Source of the DNA: Escherichia phage EcWhh-1
Direction: 5' to 3' (one strand)
Length of the DNA stretch: 64,000 bases
Sequence record: MH791409.1
A program made the position numbers and the translations under genes. Positions 5,217-48,271 of this stretch are shown piece after piece (within the stretch, counting starts at the first letter, position 1; every line of letters starts with the position of its first letter). The notes under the pieces are model-generated. The model was not told the DNA's origin, did no database searches, and saw only the letters and a program-made list of their open reading frames with translations.

Positions 5217-5444
5217 TTATTTTTGAATTAAGCCCATATAAAATTTATTGTCTTCTGGGTGCATACCATCGCAATATTCATCAGCCATAAAGCGGGTAAG
5301 GTCTTCAAGAGGACCTTGGACTTCAATTTGCATACTACAGAATTGTGTGTCTTTGATATAAGTCATAGTCAAAGAAGGATAACGATTACGGATAACTTCG
5401 TAAGTGTATTCAAAATCAACGATATCAATATTAACCTTAGCCAT
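5217..5444 (-). CDS. hypothetical protein
   Basis: 75-aa ORF preceded by a conserved early-promoter element at 5473-5501. Confidence 0.5.
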
Positions 5445-5472
5445 TTTATTTTCCTCATTAGTTGATAGGTCT

Positions 5473-5501
5473 ATAGTATCATGCCTATAGACCTTGTAAA
5501 C
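5473..5501 (-). promoter_or_regulatory. early promoter, conserved family
   Basis: GTTTAC-N17-TACTAT; the -10 lies inside the perfect inverted repeat GGTCTATAG-N8-CTATAGACC. Confidence 0.6.
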
Positions 5502-31980: not shown

Positions 31981-32006
31981 ACCCCGAAAAGGGCCTTGCG
32001 GCCCTT
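31981..32006 (-). terminator. rho-independent terminator downstream of gene 39
   Basis: Minus-strand AAGGGCC-GCAA-GGCCCUU hairpin followed by UUUCGGGGUUU. Confidence 0.6.
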
Positions 32007-32212
32007 AATTAGTTGCTTGAATCGACTCTATAAACTTGACCACGGGTTTGGTAAACTTCGCCGTCCCATGTTTCAACTGTGATAGTAACGTACTCGGCAA
32101 AAAGAGGACGTGTATCTGTCCAGAGATAACCATATTCACCTGTGACGAGCGTAACCCAGTACTTTCTCATAAAGTCTCCTTTTATACGGTACTCATGTAC
32201 CGTACGTATTTA

Positions 32213-34033
32213 TTATGACATCCAAGCCTTACGCAGCTGTGGGTCGTTTCCAAGGAGCATTTCGAACTGGTCTTTCCAATCTTCAGGTAATTGAACTACA
32301 TCGAATTTAGGGTCTTGAATCATTCGACGGTATTCAGCCTTCTCAAGAGAACCGAGTCCTTTAATATAACGAATAGAATGCTTAGGTAGAGAGTCCTTAG
32401 CTTTGGTATAACTAGGTACATCATAGAACCATTCCTGTTCTTTACCAACCTGAGCAATGATTACAGGAGTCTTACAGAAACGAATTCGTCCCTGTTCAAA
32501 CAATTCCGGCCACTGACTAAAGAAAGCTAATAACGAAGGATAAATCGAACCAGTACCATCCACATCGGCGTCAGTCATGATAGCGATATTACGATAGTTG
32601 GTTTTATCTGCAGGTTCACCAATAACCAGTCCAGTGATTGCACAGATATCAAACAATTCTTTGTTCTTCATGATATCGGCAGCAGTCATACCCCAGGTAT
32701 TCATAACCTTTCCGCGTAACGGATAACCACCTTGGAGGTCTTTATTACGAACTTCAATGAAAGGACCCATTGCAGAATCACCTTCCGTAAGGAATAAAGT
32801 CGTATCAGCATCTTTGCCATACATATTGGCTTTAATATGCTTATGGACCTTGGCTTTCAAAGCTTTCTTAGCAGCTTTTGTTTCGGCAGCCTTTTCAGCA
32901 GCGAGCTTACGTGCTAATGCAGCCTCAATAATAGGCATCAACACAGCTTCATTAGCTAATATGGATTTAGCTAGTTTTTTAGAATCTAACTGAATATGCG
33001 AACGAATTTCACCATACGGCGATGTTAGACGTTCTTTAGTCTGGGAATCGAATCGCATATTTTTCATGCTTCGCACAAACATCAGCATCGTTAAACATTC
33101 TTTAATACGGGCTTTGGTTACTTCAATTTTAAACTTACGCTTAATTTGTGGGATAAGCTCGTCACAAATATCATCCATAACACATTCAACGTGGTGACCA
33201 CCGTTTTTAGTATGAATATTGTTCACGTACGTTAATTGTCGGAATCCATCAGGAGAGCGTCCTATAGATATCGAACAATTGTCCTGTTCTTGGATAATGC
33301 ACTCTTCGTCGAACTGTTTGGCGTATTTTTTAAACGACCCTTGGATTTTCTTACCATTAAATTTAAATTCAATATCAGGATAAATGACTGCTAAGGTTTG
33401 AAGTCGGTCAATGGTAATATCTTGATAAATTTTTTCAAATTGGTTCATTTCAAAGTGGCTAAAATCAGGTACAAATTCTACTTTGGTTCCATTAGTTTTA
33501 GATGGCTTTGATTTCCAAGAAACGTTTTCAGCGTTATTAGAGCAGTTAACAATAAGTTCAGATTTACCATCAGAAGTTGTGCCTGTAAACATCACAGAGA
33601 ATATATTTGTTAAACTGGAACCGACACCGTTTTGACCACCGGTAACACGTTCAGAGTCATCACCAAAGTTACCGCCTGCCTTGGTTTTTGTCCAAGCCGC
33701 GACGGGTCCTGGGATTTCTTCACCTTCAGGAGTAACCACTAGAGCTTGAGGAATACCACGGCCATTATCTTCTACAGTAACCTTATTAGAACTTAAATCA
33801 ATGCTTACTGAAATTTTGTTGGCAAACTTAAAATTAGTACGAATAGCTTCATCAACTGAGTTATCGATGATTTCATCAACTAATTTAAGAACACCCGCTA
33901 CATACCGTACTTTGGTAAACTCGCCGAAAAGAAATCGTTCATGGTCTTCAAATGATACACTTCCGATGTACATTCCAGGACGCTTAAGAACGTGTTCCTT
34001 ATCTGAAAGCATTTCAATTTTATTATCAATCAT
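32213..34033 (-). CDS. 39: DNA topoisomerase II large subunit gp39 (GyrB-like), full-length single ORF
   Basis: 606-aa ORF with HATPase_c and TOPRIM motifs; about 90 aa longer than T4 gp39, consistent with fusion of the gene 39 and gene 60 coding regions. Confidence 0.93.
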   Translation of the reverse strand: MIDNKIEMLSDKEHVLKRPGMYIGSVSFEDHERFLFGEFTKVRYVAGVLKLVDEIIDNSVDEAIRTNFKFANKISVSIDLSSNKVTVEDNGRGIPQALVVTPEGEEIPGPVAAWTKTKAGGNFGDDSERVTGGQNGVGSSLTNIFSVMFTGTTSDGKSELIVNCSNNAENVSWKSKPSKTNGTKVEFVPDFSHFEMNQFEKIYQDITIDRLQTLAVIYPDIEFKFNGKKIQGSFKKYAKQFDEECIIQEQDNCSISIGRSPDGFRQLTYVNNIHTKNGGHHVECVMDDICDELIPQIKRKFKIEVTKARIKECLTMLMFVRSMKNMRFDSQTKERLTSPYGEIRSHIQLDSKKLAKSILANEAVLMPIIEAALARKLAAEKAAETKAAKKALKAKVHKHIKANMYGKDADTTLFLTEGDSAMGPFIEVRNKDLQGGYPLRGKVMNTWGMTAADIMKNKELFDICAITGLVIGEPADKTNYRNIAIMTDADVDGTGSIYPSLLAFFSQWPELFEQGRIRFCKTPVIIAQVGKEQEWFYDVPSYTKAKDSLPKHSIRYIKGLGSLEKAEYRRMIQDPKFDVVQLPEDWKDQFEMLLGNDPQLRKAWMS

Positions 34034-34703
34034 TATGTTTTCTCTCGAATTGTTTTAAAATATTTTTATAGGACCCTTCAGGAAATCCACGTTTAATACT
34101 TTCTTTCATGAATTTAGCCAGTTTAGGTTTATCTAATTCTAACCATAAATCTTCTAAAGCGGATTCATATTCCCAAACAGGGCTTTTACGATTTTTAAGA
34201 CCGCATTTGATTAAGGCCTCGTCTGTATGTTTCTTACCAAAGAAAGGGTTGTTTTCTTTAGCCATTGCTTTGGAATGTTCAGGGCGTTTAATCCCATACA
34301 TAGGGTTAAGTTCACCTAATTTAAGGCCTGATTGGATTTTTATAGTTTCATGAGAATGATGTTTGTTAAAGAAAGGATTGTTTTCTTTACTAACGTCGGA
34401 GCCGAAAAATCCTTTAGGTGCTGCAGTTGCTCTATTAAAAAATAAATCAGATTTAGCCGCATTATTAAGGACTTGATACTTATACTCCGCTTTAGTAGCT
34501 TCTTCTCTTGTCTCGAATTCTTCAACTATCAAACTATCGAAAAGCTCAGGATGGGCAGCCAATTCAGACTTGTAAATCTCTTGGTACTTTTTAGATTTTA
34601 CGGAGCCGTGGTATCCGTTTAAATGTTTTTCTAGGCTAGTCGAACCTATATAAAATGGAGGTAATTTGTCTCCGGAATAAATCGTCAAGTAAACTATAAA
34701 CAT
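34026..34703 (-). CDS. GIY-YIG homing endonuclease (Seg-like) with NUMOD-type DNA-binding repeats
   Basis: N-terminus IVYLTIYSGDKLPPFYIGST is a GIY-(10)-YIG module; C-terminal repeats NNPFFNKHHSHETIKIQSG and LNPMYGIKRPEHSKAMAKENNPFFGKKHTDEALIKCG resemble NUMOD3 motifs; stop overlaps the gene 39 start by 8 nt. Confidence 0.8.
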   Translation of the reverse strand: MFIVYLTIYSGDKLPPFYIGSTSLEKHLNGYHGSVKSKKYQEIYKSELAAHPELFDSLIVEEFETREEATKAEYKYQVLNNAAKSDLFFNRATAAPKGFFGSDVSKENNPFFNKHHSHETIKIQSGLKLGELNPMYGIKRPEHSKAMAKENNPFFGKKHTDEALIKCGLKNRKSPVWEYESALEDLWLELDKPKLAKFMKESIKRGFPEGSYKNILKQFERKHND

Positions 34704-34775
34704 ACATCCTCCTTTAATTTATGAAGATTATATCATGGCTTTATTGGAGCGTAAACAAAAAAAGGGCCGAAGCCC

Positions 34776-35036
34776 TTATTCGAATCGAATAGTAGAGTTT
34801 TTAAACAGTAATCCTGAGCACACGGTACCCTTAACAGTTTTACCTGTAGGACCTACAGCAATGAATCCTGTACGTTGGAAGTCATCTTCAGAACATCCAA
34901 ACAAGCTATAACCTGTGATTTGGACCTGATCGAACCCGTTTGCATTCAAAACTTTAACAGCATTATCAGCATCAGTACAACCAACCAACGAAACTGCTAG
35001 TACAAGAGCCGCAATAGAACGATTAACATATTTCAT
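34776..35036 (-). CDS. putative small lipoprotein
   Basis: 86-aa ORF with signal peptide and lipobox (LAVSLVGC). Confidence 0.55.
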   Translation of the reverse strand: MKYVNRSIAALVLAVSLVGCTDADNAVKVLNANGFDQVQITGYSLFGCSEDDFQRTGFIAVGPTGKTVKGTVCSGLLFKNSTIRFE

Positions 35037-35042
35037 AATTTC

Positions 35043-35219
35043 TCACTTAGTTAGCAGGTCATAGAACCCGCCGTTAACATGTTTAGGAGCTGAAACTAGC
35101 CGAACAGCCGGCCGATGGCAATCAGGGCAAACATCATTATCTCTTTCAGAGATTTTCTTGATTTTTTCGTATTCTTTTGCACAGTCTTCGGATTGGCATT
35201 TGTAATCATAAAGTGGCAT
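35043..35219 (-). CDS. 58-aa zinc-ribbon protein
   Basis: Translation MPLYDYKCQSEDCAKEYEKIKKISERDNDVCPDCHRPAVRLVSAPKHVNGGFYDLLTK with CxxC...CxxC spacing; below the ORF-track cut-off; read manually. Confidence 0.5.
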   Translation of the reverse strand: MPLYDYKCQSEDCAKEYEKIKKISERDNDVCPDCHRPAVRLVSAPKHVNGGFYDLLTK

Positions 35220-35220
35220 A

Positions 35221-35658
35221 TTATTCCTTAAAGTGCGCTTTCAGCATCTGGTAAACAGTCCAGGCTTCAGAATTATTAGAGATAGTGATTTTAGTCAAAG
35301 GGAAATCACTCGGTTCAGATGGGGCTGCATCTTCAGACTGGTCTTCGTCTTCAGAAAAACCATCTTCGGCCCATTCGTCTTCACTGTCAACTACAACCAT
35401 TTCCGTAAAGAATTTACGCTCGCTTGGATATAAAACCATATCAATGTTATCACCATAAGCCAAGTCCACGTTCATCACATAACCTGCCGCTAATCTAACA
35501 GGGCAAAACCCTTCAGCATTGACAATAATATCGGCTAAGCTAGAATTATCAGGATTCCTAATATTATGGGCATTCAGCTTACGGAATTCAGCTTCTGCAG
35601 CGTCATCTTTAAAATAGTACCATTTACCTTTTTCAAATTCGAGTTCTTGATTAAGCAT
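35221..35658 (-). CDS. hypothetical protein with acidic C-terminal tail; start at internal Met MLNQEL
   Basis: ORF-track frame 35221..35751; Asp/Glu-rich stretch near the C-terminus. Confidence 0.45.
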   Translation of the reverse strand: MLNQELEFEKGKWYYFKDDAAEAEFRKLNAHNIRNPDNSSLADIIVNAEGFCPVRLAAGYVMNVDLAYGDNIDMVLYPSERKFFTEMVVVDSEDEWAEDGFSEDEDQSEDAAPSEPSDFPLTKITISNNSEAWTVYQMLKAHFKE

Positions 35659-35869
35659 TGTAAGTTTCCTTCCAGAAGTCGGTGCCTTCAGCAGTGATTT
35701 CACGGAACACTGCATAGATAGGGTTTTTATCACCTTGATTTTCGTATACATAAACCGACGATAAATGAGAAAACGTATCAGAATGTTCCTTTTGAACCAC
35801 GATTAAATCAGGGTTGAACAGAACATCTTCAAATTCTTCACGAGTCGAGTTCACAGTAACTTTAGCCAT
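35651..35869 (-). CDS. hypothetical protein
   Basis: 72-aa ORF preceded by a conserved early-promoter element. Confidence 0.5.
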   Translation of the reverse strand: MAKVTVNSTREEFEDVLFNPDLIVVQKEHSDTFSHLSSVYVYENQGDKNPIYAVFREITAEGTDFWKETYNA

Positions 35870-35943: not shown

Positions 35944-36510
35944 TTATGCACGGTGAATGTTAGCATATTCAACAATAAAGCTTTCAGGAACAACCTTAAA
36001 GGTTCCAAGGAACACGATGTTATAGAGCTTAACGCCACCTTCAACCCACTGGTCTGTGATGTAACCAGACATGCTACTGGTTTCGTAAGTACCAAAAGGT
36101 TCGTCAACATATTTGAACGGTTTAGGAGTATTAAAACACACTCCTCGACCTAATTTCCATTTGAAATCAACGCCAACATGGGACTGGTCGATAGTTTCAA
36201 CGTCTTGAGCTACTACGCCACGGATATCATTGCTTTCACATACATACCCATCATGGGATTCAACTTCTTCAACTACAGGAGCGATGTACCCGGTAAATTC
36301 AGTCGATTCCAAGAATTTAGCACGCACATAACCGAATTGAGTTTCAGTCTGGCGATTTTTAGGAATGATACGAACTTTTACTTCATAATTTTCTTCACTG
36401 ACACCTTCTTTAAGTTGGATGCTAACAACTTCAACTAAACTGCCCGCAGCTTTTGAACGAGACTTTTTGGATACACGAACGATACTGCCGATATCGGAAA
36501 TAGTAATCAT
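35944..36510 (-). CDS. hypothetical protein, paralogue of 36584..37132
   Basis: 188-aa ORF; C-terminal block GYITDQWVEGGVKLYNIVFLGTFKVVPESFIVEY matches CGWVTDQWIEDGVELLNVVHAGDFSIVPRSAVVN in the neighbour. Confidence 0.55.
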   Translation of the reverse strand: MITISDIGSIVRVSKKSRSKAAGSLVEVVSIQLKEGVSEENYEVKVRIIPKNRQTETQFGYVRAKFLESTEFTGYIAPVVEEVESHDGYVCESNDIRGVVAQDVETIDQSHVGVDFKWKLGRGVCFNTPKPFKYVDEPFGTYETSSMSGYITDQWVEGGVKLYNIVFLGTFKVVPESFIVEYANIHRA

Positions 36511-36552
36511 AATTTTTCTCTCTTGGTTAAAGGTTTATAATCCATGAGAGCC

Positions 36553-36581
36553 ATTATAACATGGCTCTCGATAAAGTAAAC
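36553..36581 (-). promoter_or_regulatory. early promoter with perfect 9-bp inverted repeat flanking the -10
   Basis: GTTTAC-N17-TATAAT; GAGAGCCAT-TATAAC-ATGGCTCTC palindrome at plus 36546-36569. Confidence 0.6.
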
Positions 36582-36583
36582 TA

Positions 36584-37132: not shown

Positions 37133-37638
37133 ATTGTTCTCAATTCAATAAAATCTACGAGTTCGGCATAGGATTTGCGGAACATTACTTGGCGGCCACC
37201 AATGACAACCTCATCTTCAGGTATTTCGTAAACAGCAAGATAGAATCCTTTAGAAGATAATTCTTTACGCTCTTCACGAGTGAACCAGCGCATCATATCA
37301 TACTCACTGGCAAAAGCAAAATGGTAGAGGTTAACAAACCAGCCTGGAATATAATCGTCGCAGCCTTCATAATCAGGTCGTTTCCACTTAGTTCTAATGG
37401 TTTTATTAGAATTTTCTACCAGCAACTTATCTTGACTTGGTAGTGGGATATTTTTATTAATGCTATGATGATGTCTAAAAATAGGTCTGTCTAAACCTAC
37501 TTCTAATAACCAGCCTTCACTCCATGAGTCTGTTGTACTTCTATACGGGGTCATTTGGGTACAGAGGTCTCGTCGTATTGTGATAGCGTTTCCATCATCT
37601 AAGATACTGAACGATGACTCAACTCGATAAATTTTCAT
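37129..37638 (-). CDS. hypothetical protein
   Basis: 169-aa ORF with overlapping stop/start to the downstream paralogue. Confidence 0.5.
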   Translation of the reverse strand: MKIYRVESSFSILDDGNAITIRRDLCTQMTPYRSTTDSWSEGWLLEVGLDRPIFRHHHSINKNIPLPSQDKLLVENSNKTIRTKWKRPDYEGCDDYIPGWFVNLYHFAFASEYDMMRWFTREERKELSSKGFYLAVYEIPEDEVVIGGRQVMFRKSYAELVDFIELRTI

Positions 37639-37665
37639 TTTGTTCTCCTCATGTTGATAGGGTAG

Positions 37666-37694
37666 ATAATATCATGTCATGAGGAGAAGTAAAC
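37666..37694 (-). promoter_or_regulatory. early promoter upstream of ORF 37129..37638
   Basis: GTTTAC-N17-TATTAT. Confidence 0.55.
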
Positions 37695-37698
37695 ACTT

Positions 37699-38373
37699 TT
37701 ATCGATTTTTTACACTTAATGGGTCTGGATTCTCAGGAACATCTTCCAGGTTTAAAGCATATCGTTGGGCATATTTCAGCATCAAGATATCCTTAGCACA
37801 GTCATGGATAGAGTCATGGGCTACAAAGCCATTCAATGTTCCGTTAGGCAGAGGGCACATGCTTAATCCACGCGTCAGTGAATAGGCTTCAATGGCCGTG
37901 CGGATATCACGTTGGTTCCAGAATTTAACCGGTTCCAACTTAGTGGTATCGATTTCGTTCTCAGGAACACCTTCAGAACGATAAGCATCGCGAATAAGGT
38001 CCACTAAGATTGGAAAGTCAAAGGACATTCCGCGGCACCACATCTGCGATTTCCATTGGTCCACTTCGTTTTTACGGCAGTATTCCAGGAAATTACCAAT
38101 GCCGATAGAAGTACTCACATCAATTTCGGACGGAGCCAGGTTTTTACGTGCTTCGGGTCCTTGTTCTTTCCACCACTGCAATGTGCTTTTAGAGAACAGA
38201 CGTTTATCGCGTTGAGAAGCCAAATCGAATTTAATACGAAGGCCACGTTGAGTAAGCTCTTCAAACGATTCTACTACCTCTGGATTAGGGTCATAAGCAA
38301 TTACGGCGAGGTCGATAACTGCTGCATTTTGGGTAGTGGCAAAGGTTTCGAAGTCAATAATTATATCTTTCAT
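37699..38373 (-). CDS. dexA: exonuclease A (DnaQ-like 3'-5' exonuclease)
   Basis: 224-aa ORF; N-terminal IIIDFETF motif and C-terminal H..D motif; T4 dexA position next to dda. Confidence 0.85.
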   Translation of the reverse strand: MKDIIIDFETFATTQNAAVIDLAVIAYDPNPEVVESFEELTQRGLRIKFDLASQRDKRLFSKSTLQWWKEQGPEARKNLAPSEIDVSTSIGIGNFLEYCRKNEVDQWKSQMWCRGMSFDFPILVDLIRDAYRSEGVPENEIDTTKLEPVKFWNQRDIRTAIEAYSLTRGLSMCPLPNGTLNGFVAHDSIHDCAKDILMLKYAQRYALNLEDVPENPDPLSVKNR

Positions 38374-47486: not shown

Positions 47487-47772
47487 CTGTCACCTCTTTA
47501 ACGATATTTTTGTTATCGAAATTAGCATCACAGTACAGAACATAGTTATACTGCATAACACCGCTAGAAGCCAATTGGTCAGATACTTCTTTAACCATAT
47601 CAGGACGGTCACGTTTAGTGATGTTCATGATATCGGCATAAATCTGATGCTCAACTGCTTCTTGATCGGCAGTCATAGACCACTCACAAAGGTCTGCGTC
47701 ATAACCGGCCGTTACCGGAGCCGTGCCACATGATGCTACTGTAAGGATTGCTGCGATTAATAACTTTTTCAT
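47479..47772 (-). CDS. sp: secreted/lipoprotein, Spackle-like (candidate superinfection-exclusion protein)
   Basis: Start at internal Met MKKLLIAAILTVASCG (signal peptide and lipobox), giving about 97 aa; GYDADLCEWSMTADQ and YNYVLYCDANF blocks resemble my recollection of T4 Sp. Confidence 0.6.
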   Translation of the reverse strand: MKKLLIAAILTVASCGTAPVTAGYDADLCEWSMTADQEAVEHQIYADIMNITKRDRPDMVKEVSDQLASSGVMQYNYVLYCDANFDNKNIVKEVTGE

Positions 47773-47800
47773 TTTTAACTCCTCGTTAGTTGATAGGTCC

Positions 47801-47830
47801 ATAGTATCATTACCATAGACCATTGTAAAC
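47801..47830 (-). promoter_or_regulatory. early promoter upstream of the Spackle-like gene
   Basis: GTTTAC-N18-TACTAT-GGACCTATCAACTAACGAGGAG. Confidence 0.6.
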
Positions 47831-47865
47831 ACTTATTTTACTTTAGCGTAATCTAAAGTTACTAA

Positions 47866-48129
47866 CTATGATTCCATTATCAGACGACGTTGACGACGGA
47901 GAACCTCACCGCCGACATAAGCACGAAAAGCTTTTTTGCACTGACGAATCTGGCGCTTAGTAGGACGAACAGTAAATTCGTAGAACTCTACAAAATCCAT
48001 TTCACCTTTAGTTTCCTGAGAAAGGACAAGTTCCCAGCGACTGTTAATACGATCTGCATAAATCTTATGCTTACCGAAAGACCGGTCCCAAAAGCCACTT
48101 TTAACAGGCTTCATAATTTGGATATTCAT
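47866..48129 (-). CDS. hypothetical basic protein, paralogue of 46823..47044; start at MNIQIM
   Basis: ORF-track frame 47866..48180; ATG at 48129 has RBS GAGGAA. Confidence 0.5.
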   Translation of the reverse strand: MNIQIMKPVKSGFWDRSFGKHKIYADRINSRWELVLSQETKGEMDFVEFYEFTVRPTKRQIRQCKKAFRAYVGGEVLRRQRRLIMES

Positions 48130-48130
48130 T

Positions 48131-48271
48131 TTATTCCTCGTCTTCATGTTTATGAGCAATTTCTTCGAATTCACTGTCACAGTCTAAACAGGTTGCGTTG
48201 TCCCAAGCATCAAATACCGCTTGCTCTTCACAAACTGAACAGCCGCACACTACACATTCTACTTCTTCCAT
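48131..48271 (-). CDS. 46-aa Cys-rich acidic protein (possible zinc finger)
   Basis: Translation MEEVECVVCGCSVCEEQAVFDAWDNATCLDCDSEFEEIAHKHEDEE; read manually. Confidence 0.45.
   Translation of the reverse strand: MEEVECVVCGCSVCEEQAVFDAWDNATCLDCDSEFEEIAHKHEDEE

Follow-up and report, generated by a model that had tools for sequence, protein, structure and literature searches.

We have analysed a stretch of 64,000 nucleotides (nt) from Escherichia phage EcWhh-1 (sequence record MH791409.1), here called the window, with emphasis on an open reading frame (ORF) of 225 amino acids (aa) directly upstream of gene 39, the gene for the large subunit of DNA topoisomerase II. An original prediction, made from the sequence alone, had taken this ORF to be a freestanding and mobile GIY-YIG homing endonuclease that drives localised gene conversion. 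The region matches Enterobacteria phage vB_EcoM_IME281 (Dhakavirus, Straboviridae; NC_055740/MH051913) at 100% identity, and in the comparisons below IME281 stands for the window sequence.

The endonuclease gene and its neighbours

The ORF starts with ATG, lies at 34026..34703 on the minus strand (-) and encodes a protein 100% identical to YP_010094417 of IME281; we regard it as a Seg-like, free-standing GIY-YIG homing-endonuclease gene. Gene 39 follows directly downstream at 32213..34033 (-), is intact and encodes a gp39 of 606 aa (PHROG 543, E 1e-280; Pfam HATPase_c, DNA_gyraseB and Toprim). By reading of the sequence the two genes share the 8 nt ATGATTGA at 34026..34033 (-), which hold the stop codon of the one and the start codon of the other. 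The ORF ends 8 nt inside gene 39 just as had been stated, and the same overlap is present in Bp7, HX01, TG1 and the metagenomic Dhakavirus contig L027. The upstream neighbour, gene 39.1 at 34776..35036 (-), has a lipobox-like N-terminus MKYVNRSIAALVLAVSLVGC and is annotated as 'lipoprotein' in relatives, hence its earlier designation as a lipoprotein gene seems reasonable. As an ORF of its own between gene 39.1 and an intact gene 39, with no intron or other Rfam match in 32000..35300, the endonuclease gene is indeed freestanding.

The protein seems to consist of three parts. An N-terminal catalytic domain (aa 1-~100; 34404..34703 (-)) is followed by two NUMOD3 DNA-binding repeats at about aa 104-125 and 144-164 (34212..34394 (-)) and by a C-terminal helical domain which is helix-turn-helix-like and SegA-like (34029..34190 (-)). 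The two repeats, also foreseen in the original prediction, were found by Pfam at E 4.7e-11 and 42.9 bits (cut-off 20.4 bits), and the last 88 aa align with the C-terminus of T4 SegA at 27% identity (E 1e-5). The GIY-(10)-YIG motif of that prediction is there, as IVY(3-5) or TIY(7-9) together with YIG(18-20); only the spacer differs, being 12 or 8 residues instead of 10, which is a trivial slip.

With the single endonuclease protein as query, a search of viral contigs gave nothing beyond the phage itself and matches to NUMOD3 alone, and the NCBIfam 'group I intron endonuclease' model scored 26.6 bits against a cut-off of 56 bits. Using phmmer against PDB sequences we obtained only a weak match, to a UPF0213 (GIY-YIG) protein (E 0.24), and the sole match of the family profile search was that of the NUMOD3 region to the DNA-binding domain of I-TevI (1i3j, E 0.0097); a comparison of folds was therefore needed. 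The AlphaFold model, built with 42 homologues, has a mean predicted local distance difference test score (pLDDT) of 89.4, and its secondary structure follows the order strand-strand-helix-helix-strand-helix, as in GIY-YIG domains. The predicted model thus shows the fold on which the original prediction hinged, a GIY-YIG sheet of three strands with its helices, and the I-TevI catalytic domain is the closest fold. Matches of the model in the viral structure library BFVD are GIY-YIG and Seg-type homing endonucleases, among them SegG (19% identity by fold). Across 120 homologues, twelve residues of the N-terminal domain do not vary (Y5, Y9, G11, P15, Y18, G20, Y31, S37, E47, F55, E73 and N90), and four of these, Y18, G20, E73 and N90, have counterparts in Y17, G19, E75 and N90 of I-TevI. 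Judged from the sequences compared, the catalytic domain is a divergent GIY-YIG subfamily.

In NC_055740 the ORF is already annotated, with the RefSeq label 'HNH endonuclease', and PHROG 10820, which carries the same label, matches aa 1-133 (E 1e-46). As the Pfam scan gave no HNH-type match in the protein, while the predicted fold is that of GIY-YIG and the likenesses are to NUMOD3, SegA and I-TevI, we consider this label wrong and the protein, going by the model, a GIY-YIG endonuclease. A chance ORF is ruled out by its 242 homologues (E <= 1e-5) together with a ratio of non-synonymous to synonymous substitution rates (dN/dS) of 0.09-0.19 in the seven orthologues at the locus, all of which are intact; on these sequences the ORF is a real gene under purifying selection.

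The signals around the ORF were examined as well. A promoter-like site, GTTTAC(G)-17-TATAAT with a TG extension, was found by consensus scan (10/12 matches) at 34727..34755 (-), within the insert described below, and a strong Shine-Dalgarno sequence, AGGAGG, lies 4 nt 5' of the endonuclease ATG (34708..34713 (-)). Gene 39.1 is followed by an intrinsic terminator, GGGCTTCGGCCC with a T run (34755..34777 (-)), that is conserved at occupied and empty sites. At the empty sites of JS98, FB and RB69 a MotA-box-like middle promoter of gene 39 comes after this terminator, and in IME281 it is replaced by the promoter-like site, which we infer to be in use as a promoter. Since no promoter or terminator separates the endonuclease ORF from gene 39, the two are likely co-transcribed. 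The other endonuclease-bearing lineages have different upstream junctions, and their ribosome-binding sites are weak or missing. No T4 late-promoter motif TATAAATA was seen near the ORF. An RNA hairpin that would hide the ribosome-binding site by pairing GGAGG with a downstream CCUCC was discarded, as it was no better than shuffles (z -0.28). Further upstream, at 35221..35751 (-), the longest ORF has 176 aa and the public goF-like product, from an internal start, 145 aa, so that the start codon of this gene is uncertain.

Distribution and insert-linked divergence

The endonuclease gene is present at the same site in IME281, Bp7, HX01 and AV phages, TG1, PM2, Klebsiella phages and metagenome contigs, and it is absent from JS98, FB, RB69, phiR1-RT, M21a and T4; tblastn of the endonuclease gave no T4-type phage match at E <= 1e-5 among the matches listed. 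Full-length copies were found in 53 records, compared with 1235 records bearing gene 39 (~4%), and within the Klebsiella group 11 of ~140 records carry a copy. The gene is thus far from being present in all relatives. Its absence from the near-identical JS98 and from most other relatives, along with its occurrence at one site in several genera, agrees with the mobility that had been postulated. One copy, that of Mosigvirus AV118 (OR352948, L036 ~380-400), is ~99% identical to the HX01 gene and has lost one nt from an A-run near codon 40, which breaks the frame; this may reflect genuine decay or a sequencing error in the homopolymer.

Other nuclease genes and ORFs were encountered in related positions. 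Gaprivervirus vB_EcoM_RZ (NC_070780, L025 4161..4868 (-)) has at the same site upstream of gene 39 a different nuclease gene of 235 aa, with a match to the HNH-type Pfam family Endonuclease_7 (E 5e-18), and the 5' part of its gene 39 is 75-79% identical to the allele type linked to the seg-like gene. The site appears, from the sequences at hand, to be a hotspot at which two families of free-standing endonucleases occur. Dhakavirus QL01 (NC_028847, L039 1795..2412 (+)) carries a paralogue with the same N-terminal catalytic domain (63% over aa 2-124) and a different C-terminal half; it lies upstream of gene 47, whose start it overlaps by 14 nt, and is also found, unannotated, in IME08 at 37485-37832. 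This arrangement suggests re-targeting by a swap of the DNA-binding domain; IME281 has no second copy in the window. In Proteus phage PM2 (NC_055727, L037 5202..6017 (+)) the seg-like gene again precedes gene 39, and a second 'homing endonuclease' gene divides the topoisomerase gene into a 39-like and a 60-like part, in the manner of mobA in T4. In seg-less phages of the Klebsiella group, such as Raoultella phage vB_Rp_M21a (L033 2011..2379 (+)), the position upstream of gene 39 is occupied by an unrelated ORF of 122 aa with no Pfam match.

A comparison with insert-free relatives had been recommended along with the original prediction, and JS98, the closest sequenced relative and one without the ORF, serves this purpose well. 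By blastn and MAFFT the insert is defined as 707 base pairs (bp) at 34045..34751 (-), in place of 31 bp in JS98. Over 34.8 kb the median identity of IME281 and JS98 is 98% (in steps of 200 bp), and of the 14 such 200-bp windows that fall below 88%, 11 lie together in one block, 32789..34985, with the ORF inside it. A foreign, co-converted tract can be delimited here (~32888..34958, no strand assigned). It takes in ~190 nt at the end of gene 39.1, the endonuclease gene and the initial ~1107-1146 nt of gene 39. Within this tract the sequence is 60-80% identical to JS98, against 98-100% outside it, with flanks at 99-100%; the tract ends at nt ~1107-1146 of gene 39 (window 32888-32927) and, on the other side, at ~34958 in gene 39.1. 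Going by this alignment, gene 39 of the window is a chimera, which is of the endonuclease-linked allele type to nt ~1107-1146 and JS98-like (99.2%) beyond, and the endonuclease gene arrived with ~1.1 kb of foreign topoisomerase sequence. The only other IME281/JS98 patches below 88% in the 34.8 kb are short ones at 47768..48164, which includes a ~60-nt indel near genes 61.4/dmd, and at 36386..36582, in motB; no nuclease gene was seen at either.

The same pattern was found in three further pairs of phages with and without the endonuclease gene. In Mosigvirus, HX01 (with) and RB69 (without) have flanks of 97-99% identity and a gene 39 tract at 57-81% that extends to nt ~1106-1146. For TG1 (with) and phiR1-RT (without) of Tegunavirus, and for the Klebsiella/Raoultella phages Mexia (with) and M21a (without), the flanks are 95-100% identical, with tracts reaching nt ~1129 and nt ~650 of gene 39, respectively. 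In these three pairs the upstream flank is near-identical (95-100%) up to the insert and has a sharp edge there. Hence in four independent congener pairs the divergence begins at the insert and extends into gene 39.

The two parts of gene 39 also differ in how they group. Nucleotides 1-1150 are 75-89% identical among endonuclease-bearing phages across genera and ~69% identical to JS98 and RB69, whereas nt 1160-1821 group by genus (IME281-JS98 99.2%, HX01-RB69 98.6%). With the insert gp39 starts as MI(D/Q)NKI(E/Q)(M/I)LS, and without it, T4 included, as MIKNEIK(V/I)LSD. The four pairs, the 34.8-kb control and the incongruence between allele type and genus together form a comparative signature of the localised gene conversion that had been predicted.

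Two records at this place deserve mention in their own right. Dhakavirus vB_EcoM_FB (MT682711, L023 3532..3599) has the linked gene 39 5' allele (98.3% to Bp7) and a JS98-type empty intergenic region, joined at the gene 39 ATG; as read from its sequence, it is a natural recombinant with the linked allele but without the endonuclease. The annotated gp39 N-terminus of RB69 (L026 ~5400..5483, NC_004928), ...EPLLRNRMVCILVLSAKE, departs over ~15 residues from the conserved ...EHIKKRSGMYIGSSANE of its relatives and then returns, which looks like a compensated frameshift in the record.

The tracts could also be read as ordinary mosaic recombination, where co-infecting T4-like phages swapped the ORF and the 5' segment of gene 39 at conserved patches by general homologous recombination, with the endonuclease uninvolved. 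T4-like genomes are generally mosaic, the junctions fall where conservation of gene 39 peaks, as expected of homology-driven crossovers, and phage FB has the linked allele without the ORF. We nevertheless regard such an origin as very improbable, as the tract starts exactly at the ORF and runs in the same direction in four pairs from four genera, no other tract of like length exists in the 34.8 kb of IME281/JS98, and the allele type co-segregates with the ORF across genera.

Proposed homing and likely target

We suggest, with a probability of roughly 80%, that the ORF encodes a GIY-YIG homing endonuclease of the Seg kind which is free-standing and active, and that the ORF and gene 39 are probably transcribed together from a promoter just upstream. 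In a mixed infection the NUMOD3 repeats and the C-terminal helix-turn-helix domain would bind the insert-free co-infecting genome, most probably in or close to the 5' end of its gene 39, and the N-terminal GIY-YIG domain would cut at the bound site. The recombination-dependent repair of the phage would then copy the endonuclease gene and adjacent gene 39 sequence from the donor genome, and the exchange would resolve at the next patch of high homology in gene 39, at nt ~650 or ~1110-1146. The donor's own gene 39 5' allele would be protected from cutting by its substitutions.

Several observations weigh against this proposal. The Pfam GIY-YIG match (PF01541) is below threshold, at E 7.6e-4 and 20.2 bits with a gathering cut-off of 22.6, and none of the homologues listed has a precomputed PF01541/GIY-YIG assignment. 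Pairwise, the N-terminal domain has no significant similarity to T4 SegA (z 1.7), SegF (z 0.1) or I-TevI. There is no invariant Arg among the 120 homologues, so that the catalytic R27 of I-TevI is without an invariant counterpart. On the side of the tracts, no close donor of the IME281 tract was found, the nearest relative of its gene 39 part being the metagenome contig L027 at 88.6% and the best sequenced phage Bp7 at 78.5%. The endonuclease-bearing contig L028 has a gene 39 start like that of the other allele type (MIKNEI...), and the endonuclease-linked allele could be an old lineage spread by ordinary recombination.

The missing Arg and the sub-threshold Pfam score would suit a relic or domesticated protein that still binds DNA and no longer cuts, for instance a regulator of gene 39 expression, the tracts being left by past homing or ordinary recombination. 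Placed between promoter and gene 39 and overlapping the gene 39 start, the ORF is well situated for such a role, and in the orthologues at the locus the C-terminal, DNA-binding half is better kept than the N-terminal half (dN 0.06-0.22 vs 0.12-0.41). This explanation seems improbable to us all the same, since the twelve invariant N-terminal residues include two Tyr, a Gly, E73 and N90 that fit a GIY-YIG active site, the N-terminal domain has a dN/dS of 0.06-0.23, and the import into IME281 is recent, as indicated by flanks 99-100% identical to JS98. The hhalign alignment has a deletion over the helix of I-TevI R27, and that helix is shortened in the endonuclease model. Position 26 is K or R in 104 of the 120 homologues and K38 is present in 101, and either residue may stand in for the missing Arg.

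For an active endonuclease, the original prediction had named gene 39 or the upstream lipoprotein gene as the homing target. The tracts are polar, covering 0-200 bp upstream against 650-1140 bp into gene 39, and 8 of the 18 differences fixed between the linked (seg+) and seg- allele types fall in nt 1-100 of gene 39 (Poisson 2e-4), with a differentiation that decays with distance and fades by nt ~600. Because of this polarity and the concentration of fixed differences in nt 1-100, the target is likely the 5' end of gene 39 in insert-free phages, though common ancestry of the linked allele is a confounder. On the alignments the shortest tract limits the presumed cut to the interval from the insertion point through nt ~650 of gene 39. 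The tract junctions lie where the conservation of gene 39 peaks locally (nt ~607-667 and ~1114-1174); there repair would first meet homology, and the junctions therefore do not locate the cut. We had considered the recurrent junction at nt ~1107-1146 as the cleavage site, and rejected this as the favoured reading, as the tract of the Klebsiella pair reaches only ~650 nt and the junctions are found on conservation peaks.

A target in the 39.1-39 intergenic or promoter region of insert-free phages, or in gene 39.1 itself, would agree with the replacement of ~190 nt of gene 39.1 in IME281. The empty site moreover has the conserved terminator and a middle promoter, and the insert removes or displaces that sequence and would confer immunity by disruption. 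We find such a target unlikely, although worth keeping in mind: three of the four pairs have an upstream flank that stays 95-100% identical as far as the insert, while at least 650 nt of gene 39 are replaced in all four; linked and unlinked alleles differ most in nt 1-100 of gene 39; and FB pairs a JS98-type intergenic region with the linked gene 39 allele. Of the two candidates in the original prediction, gene 39 is thus favoured by the polarity of the tracts and gene 39.1 is less so.

Further, with slightly less than even confidence, we speculate that the endonuclease and the N-terminal ATPase(-transducer) module of gp39 form one cassette moving between genera (Dhakavirus, Mosigvirus, Tegunavirus and Klebsiella phages). 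It would repeatedly have given rise to topoisomerases that are chimeric and functional, with joins at the same conserved patches close to protein domain boundaries. Its nuclease would be an unrecognised GIY-YIG subfamily without the canonical Arg, and the same catalytic module would have been re-targeted to other essential genes, such as gene 47, by a swap of the C-terminal DNA-binding domain.

Relation to known systems

Our literature searches found no description of an endonuclease locus upstream of gene 39. As judged from the comparisons above, the gene is an uncharacterised homing endonuclease of a known kind of mobile element, with an unusually clean and replicated comparative signature. 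The findings leave the current understanding of homing endonucleases unchanged. They correct the public annotation, in that the ORF is GIY-YIG and the HNH label wrong, and they add a homing endonuclease, as yet uncharacterised, whose predicted target region lies in an essential gene. The four genera are natural replicates of a polar replacement of the topoisomerase ATPase half and may be used to study the reshuffling of essential genes by homing and the places where repair resolves. For marker-exclusion crosses, the near-identical phages IME281 and JS98 offer a ready system.

The closest parallels are the Seg endonucleases of T4 (SegA-SegG), likewise encoded by free-standing GIY-YIG genes of ~220 aa between or overlapping conserved early genes, with SegF beside gene 56 and SegG beside gene 32. 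The segF gene overlaps gene 56 as the present gene overlaps gene 39. SegF and SegG cleave at a distance from their insertion point, and the patchy distribution and polar replacement of the flank seen here are Seg-like too, fitting cleavage away from the insertion point. The site is different, as the position upstream of gene 39 is empty in T4. By sequence the comparison covered SegA and SegF: the C-terminal ~55-88 aa are like those of SegA, and the N-terminal domain has no detectable similarity to either protein. I-TevI, from the td intron of T4, is intron-borne, unlike our ORF (no intron in 32000..35300). Its zinc finger has no counterpart in the endonuclease (I-TevI_ZnF match E 0.61), and neither R27 nor H31 has a clear one, the first helix being shortened.

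Endonuclease genes have been reported at the boundaries of allele exchange (PMC10448857; PMC2988022). The locus is alike to the homing endonuclease gene (HEG) islands of Barth et al. 2023 (PMC10448857) and to the mobA-bypass cassette in T4 gene 60/39, in that part of an essential gene is exchanged, with an endonuclease gene at the edge of this segment, and the two travel together between related phages. It differs from them in its cargo, here the ATPase/transducer half of gp39, and in its nuclease, which is of the GIY-YIG type.

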